Source of the DNA: an uncultured archaeon
GTDB lineage: Archaea; Iainarchaeota; Iainarchaeia; Iainarchaeales; CSSED10-239
Direction: 5' to 3'
Assembly (NCBI GenBank): GCA_964591795.1
Contig: CAZQEL010000021.1
Span: forward strand, 1-14,978
Length of the DNA stretch: 14,978 nucleotides
The number at the start of each line of letters is the position of its first letter. Position 1 is the stretch's first letter. A model generated the notes under the pieces. The model worked only from the letters and a program-made list of their open reading frames with translations. It was not told the DNA's origin and searched no databases. Below, one piece after another: positions 3,220 through 14,243 of the stretch. Both the position numbers and the translations under genes were made by a program.

Positions 3220-4996
3220 TTATTCAACAGTTACTGATTTTGCAAGGTTTCTTGGTTTATCAATATTACATCCTTTTAGATCTGAAATATAATATGCTAA
3301 AAGTTGCATAATTATAACGTTTATAAAAGGAGTAAAATCATTATCTATGTCTTTAACATAAATCACATAATCAGATATATTTTTTATATATTCATCATTT
3401 TTAGTTGCAATTGAAATAATTACTCCACCTCTTGCTTTTACTTCATTAATATTTGAAATAACTTTTTCATAGTTATTATTTTTATTCACAATAAAAACAG
3501 AAGGCATATTTTTATCAATTAAAGCAATTGGACCATGTTTCATTTCAGCTGCTGGATATCCTTCAGCATGAATATAAGATATTTCTTTTAATTTTAAAGC
3601 ACCTTTTAGAGCTATAGGATAATTAATACCACGGCCTAGATATAAAAAGTTTTTAGAATCTTTAAAATTAATTGCTATTTTTTGAATATCATTAACAGAC
3701 TCATTAATTGTTTCAACAATTATTGTAGATAAATTTAATAAATTATTAATTATTTTATTAATATCTGTAGGTGAAATTAAATTATTTTTTTGTCCAATAA
3801 ATAATGTTAACATCCACATGGATACTAATTGATTAGTAAAAGCTTTGGTTGAAGCAACTCCAATTTCAGGCCCTGCTCTTGTATATATTCCAGCTTTTGA
3901 TTCTCTAGCTATGGTTGAACCTACTACATTAACAATACCAATTATTTTTCCTTCTTTTTGCTTTGCTTCTCTTAAAGCTGCAAGAGTATCTACAGTTTCT
4001 CCTGATTGAGAAATAACAATTACAAGGGTATTTTCTGAAATTATTGGATCTCTATATCTAAATTCTGAAGCATAGTCAACCTCTGTAGGAATTTTTAGAT
4101 ATTTTTCAAAAATAAACTTTGAAACAAGAGCACAATGCCAAGAGGTTCCACAGGCAACAATAACAATTCGATTTAATTTAGCTAGATATTCTTTAGTTAA
4201 AAAATTAAGTCCACCAAGGACTTTTTTTTTTTATAGATCTATTCTTCCAGCTAATGCATTTTTAACAGAATCTCCTTGCTCATAAATTTCTTTTAACATG
4301 AAATGTTTAAAACCTTGTTTTTCAATTTGTTCTAAAGAAATTGATAATTCTTTAATTTTTTTATCAATTATTTCATTATTAAAGTTTGTAATTGAATAAC
4401 CTTTGTCAGTAACAGTGATTATTTCATCATCTTCAATATAAACAACATTTTTTCCAACACCCAAAACAACTGGAGAACCTTTTCTTGCTACAATAATTTC
4501 TCTTTTATCTTTTGCCATAACTAAAAGTCCAAAGGAACCAACAACTTGACTAATTGCTTTTAAGGTTGCTTGTTTAAGATCATTAGTATAAAATTTAGAA
4601 ATTAATGCTACAAATACTTCTGAATCTGTTTGAGATTTAAACGAATATCCTTCTTTAATTAAATATTTTTTTTAAGATTCATAATTTTCAATAATACCAT
4701 TATGAACAATTGTAATTTTGTTAAAAGAATCAGTATGTGGATGTGAATTAACATCTGATGGTTCTCCGTGTGTAGTCCATCTAGTATGTGCAATTCCAAT
4801 TATTGAGTTAATTGAAAAGTCTAATTTTTTTTTTAAGATTAAGAACCTTTCCTTTGGTTTTAATGGTTAAAATTTTATTATTATATAAAATTGAAACACC
4901 GCAGGAATCATAATCTCTATATTCTAATCTAATGAGTCCATTAATTAAAATTGGTAATACTTTTTGTTGTCCTATATATCTTATAATTCCACACAT
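3220..4996 (-). pseudogene. glmS: glutamine--fructose-6-phosphate aminotransferase (GlmS), disrupted by 1 frameshift and 2 in-frame TAA
   Basis: N-terminus MCGII.YIG...RLEYR.YDS. Middle [21 protein letters not shown]...VHNGIIENY...SQTDSEV. SIS domains VACGTSWH...SQSGETVDT...GVASTKAF...GRG..YPIALKGALKLKEISYIHAEGYPAAEMKHGP. Canonical C-terminus KPRNLAKSVTVE*. Track ORFs 4808..4996, 4231..4518 and 3220..3819 are pieces of this one gene. Lesions: extra A in the A10 run (plus 4825-4834), TAA at 4672-4674, TAA at 4231-4233. Positions 4230..3220 form one uninterrupted 337-codon frame. Confidence 0.9.
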
Positions 4997-5824: not shown

Positions 5825-6877
5825 CTAACCACAAGTTGCATCTGTTGCAGAACCTGTAGTACTTTTATTAAACCCAAATCCTGGTGTAGGTGAGTCGCTA
5901 CTTAATGTTTCATTACATGCTCTTGGTTTTGTTGTAAAAGCATCACAAATACTATTAAGTAAACTTTGAGGATCTCTTGCAGAATTAACAGTAGTTCCGT
6001 TAATTACAAATGTAGGCGAACCTTGTATACCGTATTTTTGATTATCAGCATCGTCTATTAAGAACTTAGGATAAGTTCCATTAAGCCATGATGCCTTATC
6101 AGTATATGAACCCATAATATTGTATGTTTCATCAGTTTGAGCAATACAAGTGCTTAAAGAATCTCTTGTAATTCCAGTTGATTTAAGACATCTATCTGTA
6201 TTTCCATCTTCTAAGAAACAATATAAATATTCATTATATTTGTCAGTAAATTCAGATTTAATACATGATTGTAATAATTCTTCTTTAACTTCAACTTCAC
6301 CGTGCATAATGTAGTTTACAAATTTAATTTCAAAATCTATTGAATCACCTAAAAGATCAACAACAGGTAAAATTCCTTTTTCAGCTTGTGTACCATATGG
6401 ACAATAGGACATTATAAATAATTCAACTATTGGTTTATCTGATGGTTCTAATTTTTGAACTTCTGGTGCTTTATTATCAGTTGCATTTACATCATTTATA
6501 TTAATTGGATCTAAACCAGGTACAAACACTATTTCTCCATCTAAAGAGGTATAAATATTTAAATTTTGATCTTGTATTGTAAATGTATGTAAATACATAT
6601 TATTTTCATAAATTGACTTTTTTAAATTAAGTTCAGGAAGATTAAATGCTGTAATTAAAAAATCTTTTGTAATATTACCAACTTGTAATGCATTTTGTGC
6701 ATCTAATTCATCTGTTTGCTCGTTATTTGAGAAAAGAAAAATTGTTGATATTATAAGTAATATTAATAATACTAAGGAAACTATTTTCCAAGAATGATCT
6801 ATAAAACAAAATTTATTTTTTGCTTTATGTATTTTATGTTCATGATTTTTCGAAGATTTTTTCATATTTTCATTCAT
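5825..6877 (-). CDS. membrane-anchored extracytoplasmic thioredoxin-fold protein (DsbA/GILT-like), monothiol CPYG site
   Basis: N-terminal basic segment plus one TM helix (IVSLVLLILLIISTIFLF). Trx-fold core FIMSYCPYGTQAEK ... GIQGSPTFVINGT (cis-Pro loop). Several further Cys. TTGGTGATAAAA-ATG Shine-Dalgarno. TAG stop. Confidence 0.7.
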   Translation of the reverse strand: MNENMKKSSKNHEHKIHKAKNKFCFIDHSWKIVSLVLLILLIISTIFLFSNNEQTDELDAQNALQVGNITKDFLITAFNLPELNLKKSIYENNMYLHTFTIQDQNLNIYTSLDGEIVFVPGLDPININDVNATDNKAPEVQKLEPSDKPIVELFIMSYCPYGTQAEKGILPVVDLLGDSIDFEIKFVNYIMHGEVEVKEELLQSCIKSEFTDKYNEYLYCFLEDGNTDRCLKSTGITRDSLSTCIAQTDETYNIMGSYTDKASWLNGTYPKFLIDDADNQKYGIQGSPTFVINGTTVNSARDPQSLLNSICDAFTTKPRACNETLSSDSPTPGFGFNKSTTGSATDATCG

Positions 6878-6938
6878 TTTTTATCACCAAATATTTTTTA
6901 AAAAAATTAAAAAAATAGTTTTTTTTTAATTACATATT

Positions 6939-6956
6939 TATATATATATATATATA
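6939..6956. repeat. (TA)9 dinucleotide microsatellite in the intergenic/promoter region
   Basis: Read directly: tatatatatatatatata between the stop of the repeat-protein gene (6976) and the start of the Trx-fold gene (6877). Confidence 0.8.
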
Positions 6957-6975
6957 GAAATATTTAAAAAGAAAA

Positions 6976-9369
6976 TTATAAACTTTTTCTAACTTTTGAC
7001 ATAGAAAAACCACAATCTAAAAGTTCTGATTCAGAATAACCAGCAAGTTTAAGTTCCTCTAAATTATAACCAACAGATCTAAGTTCTTTTGCAGAAAAGT
7101 TTAAATTTTTAAGTTCTTTTGCACTAAAGTGTATTACTTTCATAAGTCTTATACCAATTCCAAGATCAAAAACTTCTTTTGCAGAATAACCAGCATAATG
7201 AAGTTGTCTTGCACTATATCCTACATCATAAAGATCTTTTGCTGAAAAATTACCATCTCTCATAAATGATGCATCAAACCCAGCAATCTTTAATTGTCTT
7301 GCAGAATAGAATGTATGTAAGTCTTTTGGAACATATCCAGCTTGAGCCATTTCTTTTGCAGTGTATCCTGCATTATAGAATTCAGATATGGGTACCTCTA
7401 ATTTATTAAGTTCTTTTGCTTTATAACCTGCAAATCTAATGCTTGAAACATCAAATCCAGCATCATAAAGTTCTTTAGCTGTATATCCAACCACATGGTA
7501 TTGTTTAGCAGTATATCCTATGCTTAAAAGTTCTCTTGCACTAAATCCACCTTTTCTTAAATCAATTAAAGAGAATCCTTCTAAATGAAGTTCAAGAGAA
7601 GTAAAACCAGCAAGTCTTAAATCAACTAAAGAATATCCATTTGCTAAAAAGTCTTTTATAGTACAACCAAGCATATGAACTTCTCTTAAAGAATAACCAC
7701 CAACAAGTAAATCATTACAAGTAACTCCTGCGTTTTTAAGTTGAATTGCTTCATAACCAGCTTCTTTTAAATCTTTAATTGAGTATCCTAAATTTATTAG
7801 TTCAGGAATTGTATATTTAAGATATTTAAGTTCATCTAAATTAAGTTTATCTTTTGAAACTTTAACTTCTTCAACTGGTGATAGGTGAATAAGATCTGAT
7901 AAATCATAACCTGCTTTTTTTAAATCTTCAATAGAAACTCCACTTTCAGCTAACCATTTAGCAGGAATTTCTTCTTTTTTAAATTTAGTTAAAGAAATTT
8001 CTTTTATAAGTTCTTTTAATGAAAAACCAACATCTAAAAGTTCTTTTATGGTAAATCCTTCTTTTAAAATTTCATTTAATGTATAAACCGATCTTACTTC
8101 TTCTAAAGTATAACCTTTTTTTATAAGTTCTTTTAATGTAAATATTTTAACAAGATCTTTAATTGAAAAACCACAATCTAAAATTTCTTTAAGTTTATAA
8201 TTAGCTGATATTAAATCTTGTAAAGAATAACCTGCATGTTTTAAATTCTTAGCAGAGTATGCGTATTCTTTTAATTTTTTTGCAGTAAATTTAGCATTTT
8301 TTAAATCTTTAGCATCAAATTCAGCAAACAATATTGTATGTTGATCAAATCTAACTTTTTTAAGATCTATTGGTTTGTAACCTATGTTTTTAAGTTCTTT
8401 TGTACTTACACCTGCAAGTTTTAGTTCCTTTAAAGAAAAACCAGTATTCTTTAAATCTTTTGCAGAAAAATGAAGATAATAAAGATCTTTAGCTGAAAAA
8501 TTAAGTTCTTTTAAAATTTTAATTGAGAATTTATTTTGTTTTAAAACAACAGCATCAACACCATATGAAAAAAGGTCTTTTGCAGTCATAGTTTTTAAAG
8601 TTTTTTTATTAATAATTATTTTTTTAACTTTTTCTTTTTTAGGAGTTTTTACTTTTTTAATAGTTTTTGTTTTAGCTACTTTTACTTTTTTAACAGCTTT
8701 TGTTTTAGTTACTTTTACTTTTTTAATTTTAATTCCAATTTCTAAATCAGTAAAACCAGCTTTTCTAAGATCATTAATACTAAATTTAGCTTTTTTAAGT
8801 TCTTGTATTGTATATGTTCCTTGATAAAGTTCTTTTGCTGATAAATTAATTGTTTTAAGTTGAGTTGCTGTAAATTTAGCTCTTTTTAAATCCTTAATAA
8901 CAAATCCAACTTCTAAGAGTTGTCTTGCACTAAATTTTGATTTTTTAAGTTCTCTTGTAGTATAACCAACTGCTTTTAAATCTTTTAAATTAATACCAAT
9001 TTCTTTTAATTCTTTTATAGAATAACCAGATACTTGTAAATCTTTTACAGAATAACCCACAGAATATAACTCTTTAGCAGTAAAATCTAAATTTTTAAGA
9101 TTAACTCCACTAAATCCTACTTCTTTAAGTTTCTTTACTGTAAACCCTGCTTTGTTTAATGTTTTTGCTTTAAAGCCAAGTCCTTTTAAAACTGTATAAT
9201 TTGCTTTTATTTCTTTTAATTTTTTTGCAAAATCAATTCTATTAATATTAAATTTTGAGAAAATAGTAACATCTACAGGAGATATAATATATCTTGAAGG
9301 AGAGTTAATTTGTTTTAATAATAAAGAATCTAGTTCTTTTTTAGTTAATTTTTTAATATTTATTGTCAT
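6976..9369 (-). CDS. 797-aa decapeptide tandem-repeat protein (x-G-[FY]-[ST]-x-x-[ED]-L-[KR]-x) with a Lys-rich central linker; function unknown
   Basis: One uninterrupted 797-codon ORF. AGGTGGTGCTTATAT-ATG Shine-Dalgarno. Residues ~62-212 form 15 consecutive 10-aa units with no indels (LKGLGFKAKT LNKAGFTVKK LKEVGFSGVN LKNLDFTAKE ...). The same unit continues through residues ~255-797 with a few 9-aa units. No N-terminal signal peptide or TM helix is evident. Confidence 0.85.
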   Translation of the reverse strand: MTINIKKLTKKELDSLLLKQINSPSRYIISPVDVTIFSKFNINRIDFAKKLKEIKANYTVLKGLGFKAKTLNKAGFTVKKLKEVGFSGVNLKNLDFTAKELYSVGYSVKDLQVSGYSIKELKEIGINLKDLKAVGYTTRELKKSKFSARQLLEVGFVIKDLKRAKFTATQLKTINLSAKELYQGTYTIQELKKAKFSINDLRKAGFTDLEIGIKIKKVKVTKTKAVKKVKVAKTKTIKKVKTPKKEKVKKIIINKKTLKTMTAKDLFSYGVDAVVLKQNKFSIKILKELNFSAKDLYYLHFSAKDLKNTGFSLKELKLAGVSTKELKNIGYKPIDLKKVRFDQHTILFAEFDAKDLKNAKFTAKKLKEYAYSAKNLKHAGYSLQDLISANYKLKEILDCGFSIKDLVKIFTLKELIKKGYTLEEVRSVYTLNEILKEGFTIKELLDVGFSLKELIKEISLTKFKKEEIPAKWLAESGVSIEDLKKAGYDLSDLIHLSPVEEVKVSKDKLNLDELKYLKYTIPELINLGYSIKDLKEAGYEAIQLKNAGVTCNDLLVGGYSLREVHMLGCTIKDFLANGYSLVDLRLAGFTSLELHLEGFSLIDLRKGGFSARELLSIGYTAKQYHVVGYTAKELYDAGFDVSSIRFAGYKAKELNKLEVPISEFYNAGYTAKEMAQAGYVPKDLHTFYSARQLKIAGFDASFMRDGNFSAKDLYDVGYSARQLHYAGYSAKEVFDLGIGIRLMKVIHFSAKELKNLNFSAKELRSVGYNLEELKLAGYSESELLDCGFSMSKVRKSL
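8646..8730 (-). repeat. ~33-nt (11-codon) tandem repeat, about 2.5 copies, encoding KKVKV[TA]KTK[AT][VI] inside the repeat protein
   Basis: Plus strand: tttttacttttttaatagtttttgttttagctac / ttttacttttttaacagcttttgttttagttac / ttttacttttttaatttt. Protein: KVKVTKTKAVK KVKVAKTKTIK KVKTPKKEKVKK. Confidence 0.6.
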
Positions 9370-9632
9370 ATATAAGCACCACCTAAAATATATAATTATA
9401 TTTAGTTAAATAATTATAGTTGAGTTAAGTTTAAATATATTGTTTTTAGTTATGTATACTTAAATTCATTTAAAATCATTTTTTTTATCTAAAAAACAAA
9501 AATATAGAGCCAATAATAATAATTATTACAATCCATATAAATAATTAAATTTTTATTTAATCTTTTAAAAAAACCTAAAATTCACATATAACTCAATAAT
9601 AAATGTTAAAGATATAAAAATATAGTTAATAA

Positions 9633-11170: not shown

Positions 11171-11419
11171 ACAAATAGTATATATGTTACATTTAAATAT
11201 ATTACTTATAAATTAAATTAAAAAAAAAACAAAAACAAATATTAATTCATAAAAATAATAAAATTTCTGCTAATTTGGTTACTTCATTCCTTTCATAAAT
11301 ATGTTCTTTTTCACCTAAATTTATTAATTACTTCTTTTATTAAATTTTTAATAATTGTTTTTTTTATCTTTTTTTTAATTTTAAGATATTTAATAATATA
11401 AAAATGTTTAAATTTATTT

Positions 11420-11434
11420 AAAAAAAGAAAAATA
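11420..11434 (-). terminator. oligo-U tract directly after the tRNA 3' end
   Basis: The minus strand reads UAUUUUUCUUUUUUU immediately after the discriminator base. This is an archaeal-style oligo-T terminator. Confidence 0.35.
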
Positions 11435-11552
11435 TCCCCCCTCCCAGATTTGAACTGGGGATCTTCCGGTTACCGCCATTAAAATAAATTTAACTTTGGT
11501 ATTACCCAAAATGTCTACAGCCAGACGCACTAGACCACTATGCTAAGGGGGG
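11435..11552 (-). tRNA. tRNA-Tyr (anticodon GUA), archaeal type, intron-containing, no encoded CCA
   Basis: Folded by hand: acceptor CCCCCCU/AGGGGGG; D arm GCA-UAGUGGUCUAG-UGC; anticodon stem UCUGG/CCGGA; loop C-U-G-U-A-G-[intron]-A; variable AGAUC; T arm CCCAG-UUCAAAU-CUGGG; discriminator A. C1-G72 and the short variable loop are the archaeal/eukaryal tRNA-Tyr type. Confidence 0.9.
11471..11514 (-). other. 44-nt tRNA intron at the canonical 37/38 position
   Basis: 118 nt of gene minus a 74-nt mature cloverleaf. The inserted ACAUUUUGGGUAAUACCAAAGUUAAAUUUAUUUUAAUGGCGGUA sits between G37 and A38. Exact bulge-helix-bulge boundaries were not verified. Confidence 0.7.
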
Positions 11553-11597
11553 TGTTTATAACTATATAATATATTAGCAAAACATATTTAAATAAAA

Positions 11598-12038
11598 CTA
11601 TTTTAGAATAATTTTTTTTAATTGTTTCTTTCTTGTTGGAAATAAGATTTTATAATAACCAACCGCATTTTCTGCCATAATATTATTTTCTAACATATAT
11701 TTATTGAACGTATATGATTTTAAAGAATCTAAAACTTCTTTTAAATTGCCTTTATATTCTACATTTAAACTTTTTTCAACAATTTTTGAAAAATTAGATA
11801 AATTAATTTCTTTTATAAAAAATGATGGATCTTTTGAAAATAATTTAGAAATTTCAAGATTAAATGATGTTAAATTAATTATTTTCCCTAAGTATTTATT
11901 TATTTGAAAGTTACTTGTAACTTCAATTGAAATTAAAAACTCTAAAATATCTAAATCTTTAACACCGGGAATTATTTTCATTTTTTTAACAGATTTAAAA
12001 TCGTTTGTATTAGCAATAAAATTAATTGTTTGATTCAT
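11598..12038 (-). CDS. hypothetical protein, paralogue B of a tandem pair
   Basis: 146-codon ORF. TGTGATTAATT-ATG Shine-Dalgarno overlapping the upstream TGA stop. Shares INFI..NDFK..KK...DLDI...ISI...INKY.G ... LFS...SF.KE.N.S.F with 12045..12431. Confidence 0.6.
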   Translation of the reverse strand: MNQTINFIANTNDFKSVKKMKIIPGVKDLDILEFLISIEVTSNFQINKYLGKIINLTSFNLEISKLFSKDPSFFIKEINLSNFSKIVEKSLNVEYKGNLKEVLDSLKSYTFNKYMLENNIMAENAVGYYKILFPTRKKQLKKIILK

Positions 12039-12044
12039 AATTAA

Positions 12045-12431
12045 TCACATTTTATGAAAAGATGGAAATGCATTTTTTTTTGAAAAATATTTTTCTAAAA
12101 TATATACTTTACAGGCATGAAATAAAGCTTTTTTCTTAGCTTTTTTATATTCAGTTAAAAGTTCATTTACTTGTCTTTTAAATTTACTGGAATTAAGTTC
12201 CTTTAAAAAAGAAGTTTCATTCATTGAAAATAAAGCTAAGTTTGATTTTTCTAATTTTTTTACATCAAGTATCTTTTCTAAAAGAACGCCTACATATTTA
12301 TTAATTGGAGTTTGAATAGATATGTAATATTTAAAAATATCCAAATCATTTGTTTTTAATTTAAACGGTAATTTTTTATCTTCTTTAAAATCGTTTACAC
12401 TTGAAATAAACTGTATATATTCATCTGCCAT
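12045..12431 (-). CDS. hypothetical protein, paralogue A of a tandem pair
   Basis: 128-codon ORF. TGTGATTTAAT-ATG Shine-Dalgarno. Collinear similarity to 11598..12038 over most of its length. Confidence 0.6.
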   Translation of the reverse strand: MADEYIQFISSVNDFKEDKKLPFKLKTNDLDIFKYYISIQTPINKYVGVLLEKILDVKKLEKSNLALFSMNETSFLKELNSSKFKRQVNELLTEYKKAKKKALFHACKVYILEKYFSKKNAFPSFHKM

Positions 12432-13092: not shown

Positions 13093-13906
13093 CTAATACA
13101 TATGACTTCTTGTGCTAATTAATAAATCTGTAAAATAAACATCAATCTTACCATCTACTCTTTTAACAAAAATATTTGAAAGTTTTTCAAAATCTCCAAT
13201 ACCTCTTTTGTTACCTACAGAAACTGGTAAGAAGTTAAGTTCTGTTAATTTATGAATTTTATTCTGAATTGATTTAAGTTCTTTTGTTGTTATTTTTTTA
13301 TCTAAATAAGCTTCACCCATTGTTTTTAATCCTGTAAAGTCATAAGCAATAATACTTTTCCTACTTAAGTTATCAGTAAACGCTAAATGAGGCTTTATTG
13401 TATTAATTCCATATTTTTGAAAAGCTTGATTTGCAATAAATTCATTATTTGCTAAAAAACTACTCATTGGAGCTTCAACCATTTTTAAAAAATAATCTTT
13501 AGATATATTTTCTTTTTTTAAAAATAAATTCATTTTCAGTAAATATTTATTATTATAACTACTTTTCTTAAAATGAGATAAATTTAAATCAAGTTTATCT
13601 GTACTTAAAGAATACTTTTTAATATTATTACTATTAATATTAAATACGTTTTTAGAAATAAAATCTATAACTTCAGGATATTGTTTAAATATATTTTTTC
13701 CAATTAAGCTTAGATGTAAAGTTTTAGATTTTTTAGAACCTAAATCAATTGAGTAATATAAAGTTTTGCCATTTAATTTTGTAACTTTAAATTGATTCTT
13801 ATTTTTTATAAGTCTTTTTCTTTTTAAAGTAATATTAGAATCTATTTTTCCTAAATTAACATCTAATTTAGGTTTTTTTAATTTTTTTAAAATTTAAACA
13901 AATCAT
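13093..13906 (-). CDS. hypothetical protein, ~270 aa if one A is removed from an A7 run; as written, the start is frameshifted from the body
   Basis: The track ORF (13093..13533) has no SD at its ATG, and its frame stays open 120 more codons to 13893 without any ATG/GTG/TTG. AGGTG-TAA-ATG lies at 13914-13904 in the frame offset by 1 (MICLNFKKIKKT*). The two frames overlap only across two A7 runs (plus T-runs 13873-13879 and 13882-13888). Confidence 0.55.
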
Positions 13907-13927
13907 TTACACCTGATTAATTATAAA

Positions 13928-14212
13928 TATAGTGGTTTACTATAAGCCGCTTTATGTAGTTAATAGCAATCAGTCTTAGCGGAGATTAAAATTCTCCTTG
14001 CACCAAATGTATTCCTGCATGATTTCAGCCTTTCTCTTTTCCCTTCAGTTCTACACATCACAAGTTTAAAATAGAAAAGAGCCGTCTTGTTTCTGTTCAG
14101 GAATAAAGCCCCATTAAGAACTTTTATTTTTTTAATTAAATTATTGGTGAGCGGACTTTCCTCATCTTTTTAGAATCACTCTAAAAAAATGTGCTAAACA
14201 TAAACCACTATA
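13928..14212 (-). ncRNA. rnpB: RNase P RNA
   Basis: ORF-free G+C-richer island. The minus strand contains, in the correct order: GAGGAAAGUCCGC (CR-I / P4 5' strand, plus 14151-14163), AACAGAAAC, AAGGGAAAAGAGAAAGG, AGACUGAUUG, and ACAUAAAGCGGCUUAUAG (CR-V / P4 3' strand, plus 13940-13957). AAG-U-CCGC pairs with GCGGCUU, leaving the conserved bulged U. The termini form a perfect 12-bp P1 (UAUAGUGGUUUA / UAAACCACUAUA). Confidence 0.85.
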
Positions 14213-14234
14213 TATAATATTAAGATAAAAATAG

Positions 14235-14243
14235 TTTATAAAG
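14235..14243 (-). promoter_or_regulatory. TATA-like box CTTTATAAA upstream of RNase P RNA
   Basis: Minus-strand CTTTATAAAC lies about 22-31 nt upstream of the first P1 nucleotide, directly after the stop of the 14244..14945 gene. Confidence 0.35.

Follow-up and report, generated by a model that had tools for sequence, protein, structure and literature searches.

A stand-alone decapeptide-repeat protein encoded in an Iainarchaeota genome and its predicted helical solenoid fold

Introduction

The DNA analyzed here is a 14,978-nt stretch (hereafter the window) of an uncultured archaeon of the Iainarchaeota (contig CAZQEL010000021.1 of assembly GCA_964591795.1), in which one gene encodes a 797-aa protein composed almost entirely of 10-residue repeats. 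The locus raises the question of which family these repeats belong to, how they fold, and what such a protein might do in the cell. An original prediction, made from the letters of the sequence, placed the protein in an unassigned solenoid-type family, considered either a pentapeptide-repeat β-helix or a stack of helix-hairpin-helix (HhH)-like units, and suggested a cytoplasmic role in nucleic acid binding or scaffolding. Here, we show by profile matching that the protein belongs to the catalogued decapeptide-repeat family PF25296, and we propose that it is, on balance, probably a stand-alone cytoplasmic member of this family, acting as a modular α-solenoid binding scaffold.

Results

The repeat protein belongs to the decapeptide-repeat family

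In the Pfam comparison, the protein matched PF25296 (“Decapeptide repeat region”) with 541.4 bits (E = 1.2e-166) over 12 stretches, against a gathering threshold of 45 bits. Among PDB chain sequences, the sole strong match was the repeat region in the center of Legionella pneumophila IcmE/DotG, which was reached with E = 3.6e-78 by the protein query and with E = 9.7e-116 by a profile of the arrays. The 10-residue repeat of DotG has been described since the late 1990s, and its published motif is [KR]-x-A-G-[FY]-[STND]-x-x-x-[LI] (bioRxiv 10.1101/2023.03.22.533729; FEBS Lett version PMC13244404). The unit consensus of the archaeal protein, K-x-A-G-[FY]-[ST]-[ALI]-K-[ED]-L, follows the same motif. 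The family that the original prediction had left unassigned is therefore a known one, and PF25296 is the kind of confident profile match to a known repeat family that it had set against its own proposal. A literature search found no paper on PF25296.

The repeat period was evident from several counts. The identity autocorrelation at a lag of 10 residues was 0.247, compared with 0.079 for 500 shuffles (z = 16.7), and the z values at lags of 20, 30, and 40 were 15.7, 14.1, and 11.6, respectively. At a lag of 5, the value was slightly under random (z = −2.7), indicating that identities do not recur with a period of 5 residues. The motif [FY][STDKNV]xx[EDQNKS][LIVMFY] occurred 52 times (shuffle mean 4.9, maximum 14), and 34 of the 51 consecutive pairs were spaced by exactly 10 residues. 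Residues 61 to 210 formed 15 rows of 10 with an unbroken register; other in-register blocks were found at residues 281 to 409, 519 to 687, and 688 to 797, with a few 9-residue slips in between. In the AlphaFold2 (AF2) model, DSSP assigned 69 helix-turn units past residue 57, and 59 of the 68 start-to-start spacings were 10. These results agree with the original prediction of a regular solenoid-type repeat protein of 60 to 70 units, 15 of which had been placed in perfect register at residues ~62 to 212, and position-specific counts confirmed its alternation of F/Y and then L every 5 residues. At the DNA level, Tandem Repeats Finder (TRF) reported only patches of 30-bp periodicity with 68 to 79% matches, confirming the proposed divergence of the repeats except in the Lys-rich linker, where a recent 33-bp repeat of 2.4 copies encodes the 11-aa unit VKV[TA]KTK[AT][VI]KK.

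An identity with DotG itself was considered and rejected, since no TrbI domain, no transmembrane (TM) helix, and no type IV secretion system (T4SS) context were found. DotG has a TM domain, 42 decapeptide repeats, and a C-terminus resembling VirB10, and the L. longbeachae protein has ~90 repeats (PMC2824747). The archaeal protein scored 485.5 bits against the DotG/IcmE model NF033900 of NCBIfam, below the equivalog cut-off of 750, and the match covered only profile positions ~524 to 718, that is, the repeats. The VirB10/TrbI domain PF03743, which is present in the true DotG relatives P0080, P0085, and P0087, was not matched at E ≤ 10. An N-terminal TM anchor as in DotG was not found; the maximum 19-residue Kyte–Doolittle mean was 0.98 and lay away from the N-terminus, so that the absence of a signal peptide and of any TM helix, as originally noted, holds for the whole protein. 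No genes of a dot/icm cluster (for a type IVB secretion system) surrounded the repeat gene in the window or at the orthologous locus of Candidatus Forterrea multitransposorum.

The unit is predicted to be a minimal capped α-helix

A full-protein AF2 model, built on a 33-sequence family alignment, had a mean predicted local distance difference test (pLDDT) score of 83.6, with 467 residues at ≥90, and contained zero β-strands and 55% helix. The ordered arrays spanned approximately residues 58 to 211, 255 to 461 (or to 493), and 511 to 796, separated by low-confidence gaps at 217 to 251 and 489 to 503. Array 1 folded alone, with an alignment consisting of the internal paralogous arrays only, reached a pLDDT of 94.5 and a predicted template-modeling (pTM) score of 0.79.

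Each unit in the model was a 6-residue helix followed by a 4-residue turn, and 54 of the 69 helices were exactly 6 residues long. According to helix-capping rules, a capping box has the form S/T-x-x-E, and a Schellman motif has Gly at C′ and a hydrophobic contact between C3 and C″. Of the 69 helices, 59 had S/T/N/D as the N-cap, 54 had E/D/Q as N3, 47 had G/N as C′, and 68 had an aliphatic C3 residue; in the unit, the Gly is followed by the aromatic residue. From these residue counts, we infer that each unit is a minimal, doubly capped helix, in which S/T at the N-cap and E/D at N3 would form the capping box and L-x-x-A-G-[FY] would close the helix in a Schellman-like manner. The unit fold as a minimal capped α-helix is predicted with high confidence. 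A continuous hydrophobic core would be built from the aromatic residue and the Leu together with the small residues at +2 and −2, and stacking of the units would give three rigid α-solenoid rods (16, ~24, and 29 units), connected by two flexible hinges, one of them the polycationic low-complexity linker.

In Foldseek searches against the PDB, the full model had no match at E ≤ 1e-3 (best E = 0.03, TM-score ~0.1), and the array 1 model had no significant match (best E = 0.32); the search against BFVD also gave no significant match. The modeling and structure comparison that the original prediction had proposed as a check thus returned a regular helical solenoid, not a disordered chain, with no significant structural relative. 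The AlphaFold model of DotG is also not a classic β-helix according to its authors (bioRxiv 10.1101/2023.03.22.533729; PMC13244404).

Relation to pentapeptide and HhH repeats

The original prediction had considered the period compatible with a divergent pentapeptide-repeat right-handed β-helix, a DNA mimic of the Qnr/MfpA type. A link to PENTAPEPTIDE repeats was indeed found, as the pentapeptide model PF13599 (Pentapeptide_4) scored 54.9 bits (cut-off 38). The array profile matched the designed β-solenoid 4yfo with E = 1.2e-7, in an alignment where the central Leu of A(N/D)L is paired with F/Y and L, and reached McbG-like (5e-3), TL15, and Qnr proteins weakly. Weak NCBIfam Qnr/HetL matches and the hydrophobic residue at every fifth position point in the same direction. 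The profile scores suggest that this sequence link is real but shallow, since the per-domain E-values to 4yfo were only 2e-3 to 5e-3 and rest on the Leu/aromatic spacing, and the Qnr score of 31.8 was far under its cut-off of 460.

The other results argued against a β-helix. The period is 10, with the negative lag-5 value given above, and the would-be inward i−2 position of a Leu-centered pentapeptide is Lys/Arg in 43 of the 69 units. AF2 predicted no strands, with pLDDT >90 in the arrays, and there was no β-solenoid among the Foldseek matches. The DNA mimics MfpA and Qnr are acidic, whereas the archaeal protein is basic (isoelectric point (pI) 9.6). The β-helix reading is therefore largely refuted by computation, and we regard it as highly improbable; what remains of the original proposal is the sequence link.

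The other alternative raised there, a stack of short HhH-like helices, resembled the predicted fold more closely. In the Pfam comparison, however, no HhH family was among the matches at E ≤ 10, and in the Foldseek search with the full model, topoisomerase V (8df9) appeared at rank 9 with a non-significant E = 0.38 (probability 0.11, TM-score 0.08) and was absent from the array 1 matches.

Orthologues are collinear and under purifying selection

In a scan of GTDB species genomes, full-length orthologues were found in Ca. Forterrea multitransposorum (a complete 839,632-bp genome, CP045477.1), a Ca. Iainarchaeum metagenome-assembled genome (MAG), and a Diapherotrites MAG. They were ~71 to 75% identical to the window protein over the full length and collinear with it. 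A first metagenome scan with low-complexity N-terminal patterns found no loci, and a rerun with a distinctive alignment block found two, both carrying further orthologues on large contigs; the identical protein was present on two further metagenome contigs. Outside the Iainarchaeota, the relatives found reached at most ~43% identity. The orthologues, together with the conserved gene order and the archaeal neighbor families DUF2666 and DUF4013 described below, indicate a Forterrea-like DPANN host within the Iainarchaeota. The Forterrea lineage has been characterized as putatively symbiotic and minimal in its metabolism, in a genome paper that does not mention the repeat protein (PMC5905446).

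The pairwise ratio of nonsynonymous to synonymous substitution rates (dN/dS) of the repeat gene was 0.15 to 0.35, values that are approximate given a dS of 0.56 to 0.80 in a very AT-rich genome. These ratios show purifying selection on the repeat gene at the sequence level and support the earlier claim that selection acts on the protein. Identity was 76% between orthologous units and 30% between the paralogous units of the protein, suggesting that the array is old and has not been homogenized by recombination. The orthologues share the same unit number, and indels occurred only in the Lys-rich linker, apart from one single-residue gap in the middle hinge. This hinge was the least conserved part (31% of columns invariant), and array 3 was the best-conserved array, with 69% of columns identical in all four orthologues. 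In the linker, the composition was kept (K+R 21 to 25, D+E 2 to 12), whereas sequence and length (50–62 aa) were not. Among the four orthologues, predicted surface positions were invariant in 52 to 67% of units and core positions in 65 to 88%, which suggests that the units may have specific functional surfaces.

The N-terminal region (aa 1–57) had no Pfam match. It contains the motif SPSRYIISP (aa 23–31; window 9277–9303), which was invariant across all orthologues and is possibly a short linear motif for interaction or modification.

Breadth of the family

A search of 1.84 billion cluster representatives returned 2147 relatives at E ≤ 1e-3, 258 of which had E ≤ 1e-30, and the relatives include repeat-only giants of 3000 to 4100 aa. 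Among 204 family members retrieved, 96 had a VirB10-like C-terminus and 108 had none, and 57 of these 108 were without a predicted TM segment. Judged from these domain compositions, the stand-alone architecture is common in the decapeptide-repeat family. The contexts of the non-DotG members L008 to L011 were ORFan-rich and gave no functional lead. To our knowledge, the protein described here is the first decapeptide-repeat protein noted in Archaea; our literature search found none, and the survey covered part of the archaeal genomes.

Two side observations concern the family at large. The eukaryote-like members P0001, P0002, P0004, P0034, P0046, and P0058 have an N-terminal multi-TM domain and an E-x-x-PQ-x-L-[LI]-Q motif and may form a class of membrane-protein/decapeptide fusions; P0034 had a weak, sub-threshold match to the XK-related family PF09815 (20.5 bits versus a cut-off of 24.8). 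A 30-kb metagenome contig (L009:1–9773) carries three tandem decapeptide-repeat genes of 486, 486, and 590 aa.

Gene organization

The coordinates of the gene, its flanking signals, and the protein regions are listed in Table 1. The gene position given in the original prediction was correct and the strand is minus: the 2394-nt open reading frame (ORF) starts with ATG at 9369–9367 and ends with TAA at 6978–6976, and a plus-strand reading of the same interval was rejected because it contained stop codons throughout. It is the largest ORF of the window, as had been stated, the next one being 350 aa. The strong Shine–Dalgarno sequence that had been claimed was located as AGGTGGTG, which agrees with AGGAGGTG at 7 of 8 positions, and GGTGAT occupies the equivalent position ahead of the gene downstream of the repeat gene. 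The oligo-T tract TTTTCTTTTT is possibly an archaeal terminator, judging from its position. Given this tract after the stop codon and the GGTGAT of the next gene, the repeat gene looks monocistronic. The Lys-rich linker noted in the original prediction is real but lies ~30% along the protein, not in its middle. In the AT-rich stretch just upstream of the Shine–Dalgarno sequence, an 18-bp direct repeat was observed (9392–9428, two copies, 89% matches).

Table 1. Features of the repeat locus in window coordinates
Feature	Position	Strand	Basis
Complete coding sequence, 797-aa decapeptide-repeat protein	6976..9369	minus	ORF list, translation; PF25296 541 bits; collinear orthologues; dN/dS
Shine–Dalgarno-like AGGTGGTG	9377..9384 (read 9384–9377)	minus	Sequence read directly; 7 nt upstream of ATG
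Oligo-T tract TTTTCTTTTT, directly after stop codon	6966..6975	minus	Sequence read directly
N-terminal non-repeat region, aa 1–57	9199..9369	minus	AF2 pLDDT 43–68, partly low-confidence
Repeat array 1, aa 58–212, 16 predicted helix-turn units (15 in perfect 10-residue register)	8734..9198	minus	AF2 pLDDT 86–97
Lys-rich linker, aa 213–254, predicted disordered	8608..8733	minus	pLDDT 36–42; net charge ~+21
33-bp tandem repeat in linker, 2.4 copies, 93% matches	8647..8726		Tandem Repeats Finder and translation
Repeat array 2, aa 255–461, ~21 units, three 9-residue slips near aa 410–430	7987..8607	minus	Register analysis; AF2 pLDDT 76–97
Middle hinge, aa 462–510, three degenerate units and low-confidence aa 489–503	7840..7986	minus	AF2 pLDDT 39–61
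Repeat array 3, aa 511–797, 29 units, net charge 0	6979..7839	minus	AF2 pLDDT 80–97

The possibility that the ORF is spurious, or a low-complexity artefact of AT-rich DNA, was rejected. The genome is AT-rich (20–29% GC; 19–30% in the window) and Lys codons are abundant, as such an artefact would have it. However, the open frame spans 2.4 kb and has a Shine–Dalgarno sequence, orthologues with the low dN/dS given above are present in at least six assemblies, the match to a curated Pfam family is very strong, and the fold is predicted with high confidence, so that we consider the artefact practically negligible.

Gene neighborhood

The neighbors of the repeat gene in the window are genes for an esterase, a thioredoxin (Trx)-like membrane protein, a CPBP protease, glmS, thymidine kinase, and DUF2666 proteins. 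The order esterase, repeat gene, (desulfoferrodoxin), Trx-like membrane protein, CPBP protease, and glmS is conserved. Archaeal-type families in the window comprise two DUF2666 genes, DUF4013, and an HVO_A0114-like ArsR. No secretion or pilus genes were found in 15 to 22 kb of context (the window and the orthologous loci), the tRNA and Rfam scans of the window gave no matches, and the neighborhood provided no guilt-by-association clue to function.

The 350-aa neighbor (5825–6877, minus) is a membrane-anchored acidic protein (pI 4.7) with a CPYG thioredoxin-like motif; it had only sub-threshold GILT/Thioredoxin_4 matches and adjoins the repeat gene in all orthologous loci. In four of these loci, a desulfoferrodoxin gene (130 aa, PF01880 and PF06397; L004:12604–12996) lies between the repeat and Trx-like genes, and the window has a 98-bp spacer (6878–6975) in its place. 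glmS, which encodes glutamine-fructose-6-phosphate aminotransferase (3220–4996, minus), is broken in the window, with its N-terminal 62 aa in another frame and two in-frame TAA codons. An intact gene (609 aa) is present in Forterrea and at two orthologous metagenome loci, and the Iainarchaeum MAG also has a split one; the lineage appears to be in the process of losing this gene. An alternative genetic code, suspected from the split gene, was rejected; one frameshift plus two in-frame TAA codons, with intact orthologues, indicate a pseudogene rather than recoding.

Two tandem DUF2666 paralogues (11598–12431, minus; L001:2186–3019) are separated by TGA and 6 nt. On the identical contig L001, the ENA call gives one 277-aa product that continues across this TGA; since two genes are retained in the JGI call and in the orthologues, the single product is apparently an artefact of the gene caller. 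Two long stretches, 13534–14243 (710 bp) and 11171–11597 (427 bp), were free of ORFs of ≥60 aa and of tRNA and Rfam matches, which is unusual for a compact DPANN genome.

Discussion

The results favor a stand-alone decapeptide-repeat protein that would act as an elongated binding scaffold, with its rods binding specific partners, either protein or possibly polyanion. Since the surface residues conserved across orthologues are particular to each unit, a scaffold for specific partners is a better fit than a simple spacer. A cytoplasmic location is most likely, as judged from the lack of a signal peptide and TM helix and from its charge, which resembles that of its cytoplasmic neighbors, whereas the anchored Trx-like neighbor is acidic. 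A broader proposal, that the decapeptide repeat constitutes a distinct α-solenoid class of stacked 6-residue doubly capped helices without a PDB counterpart and that the archaeal protein, through its rods and its polycationic hinge, is a cytoplasmic polyanion- or protein-binding scaffold built from it, is put forward as a tentative possibility.

Several points weigh against this interpretation. AF2 can over-predict helices for idealized repeats, and the α-solenoid rests on the AF2 models together with capping-motif logic. The decapeptide repeats are unresolved in all cryo-electron microscopy maps of DotG, so that the fold is known from predictions only, and the profiles tie the repeat to genuine β-helical pentapeptide proteins, with PF13599 above its cut-off and 4yfo at 1.2e-7. 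The scaffold function is one that we infer, with a neighborhood that gives no functional clue, and the protein may be exported by an archaeal route that does not use a classical signal peptide.

The main rival is a nucleic acid–binding protein of the nucleoid or of RNA, in which the linker and the helix N-termini, with G-aromatic-S/T turns and Lys at N2, would contact phosphate backbones in an HhH-like manner. The linker is net positive in all four orthologues, with 21 to 25 K+R, and the net charges of arrays 1 and 2 are +15 and +10, compared with ~+21 for the linker and zero for array 3. The predicted all-α, helix-turn-helix-like units also resemble an HhH layout, and the HhH arrays of topoisomerase V were among the Foldseek matches, albeit at the non-significant values given above and with no HhH family in the Pfam search. 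Charge was rejected as evidence of DNA binding after a control with the neighbors: the net charge of the protein, +6.5 per 100 aa, is ordinary beside the +5 to +8 of neighboring cytoplasmic proteins. Positive charge is thus weak evidence for nucleic acid binding, being typical of this AT-rich proteome, and the Lys positions of the unit belong to the family-wide motif, which is present in periplasmic DotG too. The inference drawn from charge in the original prediction is weakened accordingly. In addition, the most conserved array, array 3, is neutral, and the linker sequence is poorly conserved and K/E-mixed in two orthologues. We consider nucleic acid or polyanion binding unlikely, although it is the foremost competitor of the scaffold reading.

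Still less likely is an extracytoplasmic spacer or cell-contact structure, with rods that would cross the envelope of the putative symbiont or project from it. By analogy, the sole characterized context of the repeat is periplasmic DotG, whose repeats have been proposed to form a periplasmic collar of the Dot/Icm machine, approximately half of the retrieved non-DotG members have TM segments, and Forterrea is a predicted symbiont (PMC5905446). The archaeal protein, however, has neither a signal peptide nor a TM helix and is basic like its cytoplasmic neighbors, unlike the acidic anchored Trx-like protein. Moreover, no secretion or pilus genes were found in the 15 to 22 kb of context, and the unit number is fixed across orthologues, whereas DotG arrays are variable. 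The cytoplasmic scaffold therefore remains the reading that we prefer.

These findings show that the decapeptide repeat is not tied to bacteria or to type IV secretion, as it occurs here in a conserved housekeeping-context gene of genome-reduced DPANN archaea. They also add one more stand-alone member to a family of more than 2000 sequence clusters that are mostly uncharacterized. Such proteins are easily mislabeled as “DotG/IcmE” or as “pentapeptide repeat/Qnr-like”, and both labels are corrected here. As a soluble single-chain protein with arrays at a pLDDT of ~95, the archaeal protein is a practical target for an experimental decapeptide-repeat structure. If the proposed α-solenoid is correct, the archaeal protein, whose units are fixed in number and conserved one by one and whose models are very confident, would be the best handle available for solving the fold of the unresolved DotG “collar” in the Legionella Dot/Icm machine.

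Comparison with known systems

The tandem HhH arrays of Methanopyrus kandleri topoisomerase V consist of short helices in an all-α arrangement, with tight Gly-hydrophobic turns and ~20 residues per unit pair, as predicted here. The turn is A-G-[FY]-[ST] in the archaeal protein and G-hydrophobic-G in HhH. Pentapeptide proteins (Qnr, MfpA, HetL, and PipB2; the PF13599/PF00805 clan) share with it the hydrophobic residue every five positions and the small residue two before the aromatic. However, the archaeal protein has a true period of 10, every second “pentapeptide” carries Lys/Arg at i−2 and Glu/Asp at i−1, and the protein is basic and predicted to be all-α, whereas pentapeptide proteins are acidic quadrilateral β-helices.

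Within the decapeptide-repeat family, stand-alone and giant members from metagenomes, protists, and intracellular bacteria (P0063 of 3663 aa; P0051, P0052, and P0054) are, like the archaeal protein, repeat-only and without VirB10. Unlike the archaeal protein, many stand-alone members have an N-terminal multi-TM region or other domains, and they sit in ORFan-rich contexts.

The closest characterized system is DotG of Legionella and Coxiella, which shares the motif [KR]-x-A-G-[FY]-[ST]-x-x-[ED]-[LI] in tens of tandem units, with 29 to 35% identity between the arrays across hundreds of residues. In both proteins, the predicted fold is not β-helical. The archaeal protein differs in having an archaeal host and a probably cytoplasmic location, and it has no N-terminal TM helix, C-terminal VirB10/TrbI domain, or T4SS locus. 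A polycationic linker interrupts its arrays, which is a further difference from DotG. It has a fixed number of individually conserved units, whereas the DotG arrays of Legionella range from 42 to ~90 units between species.

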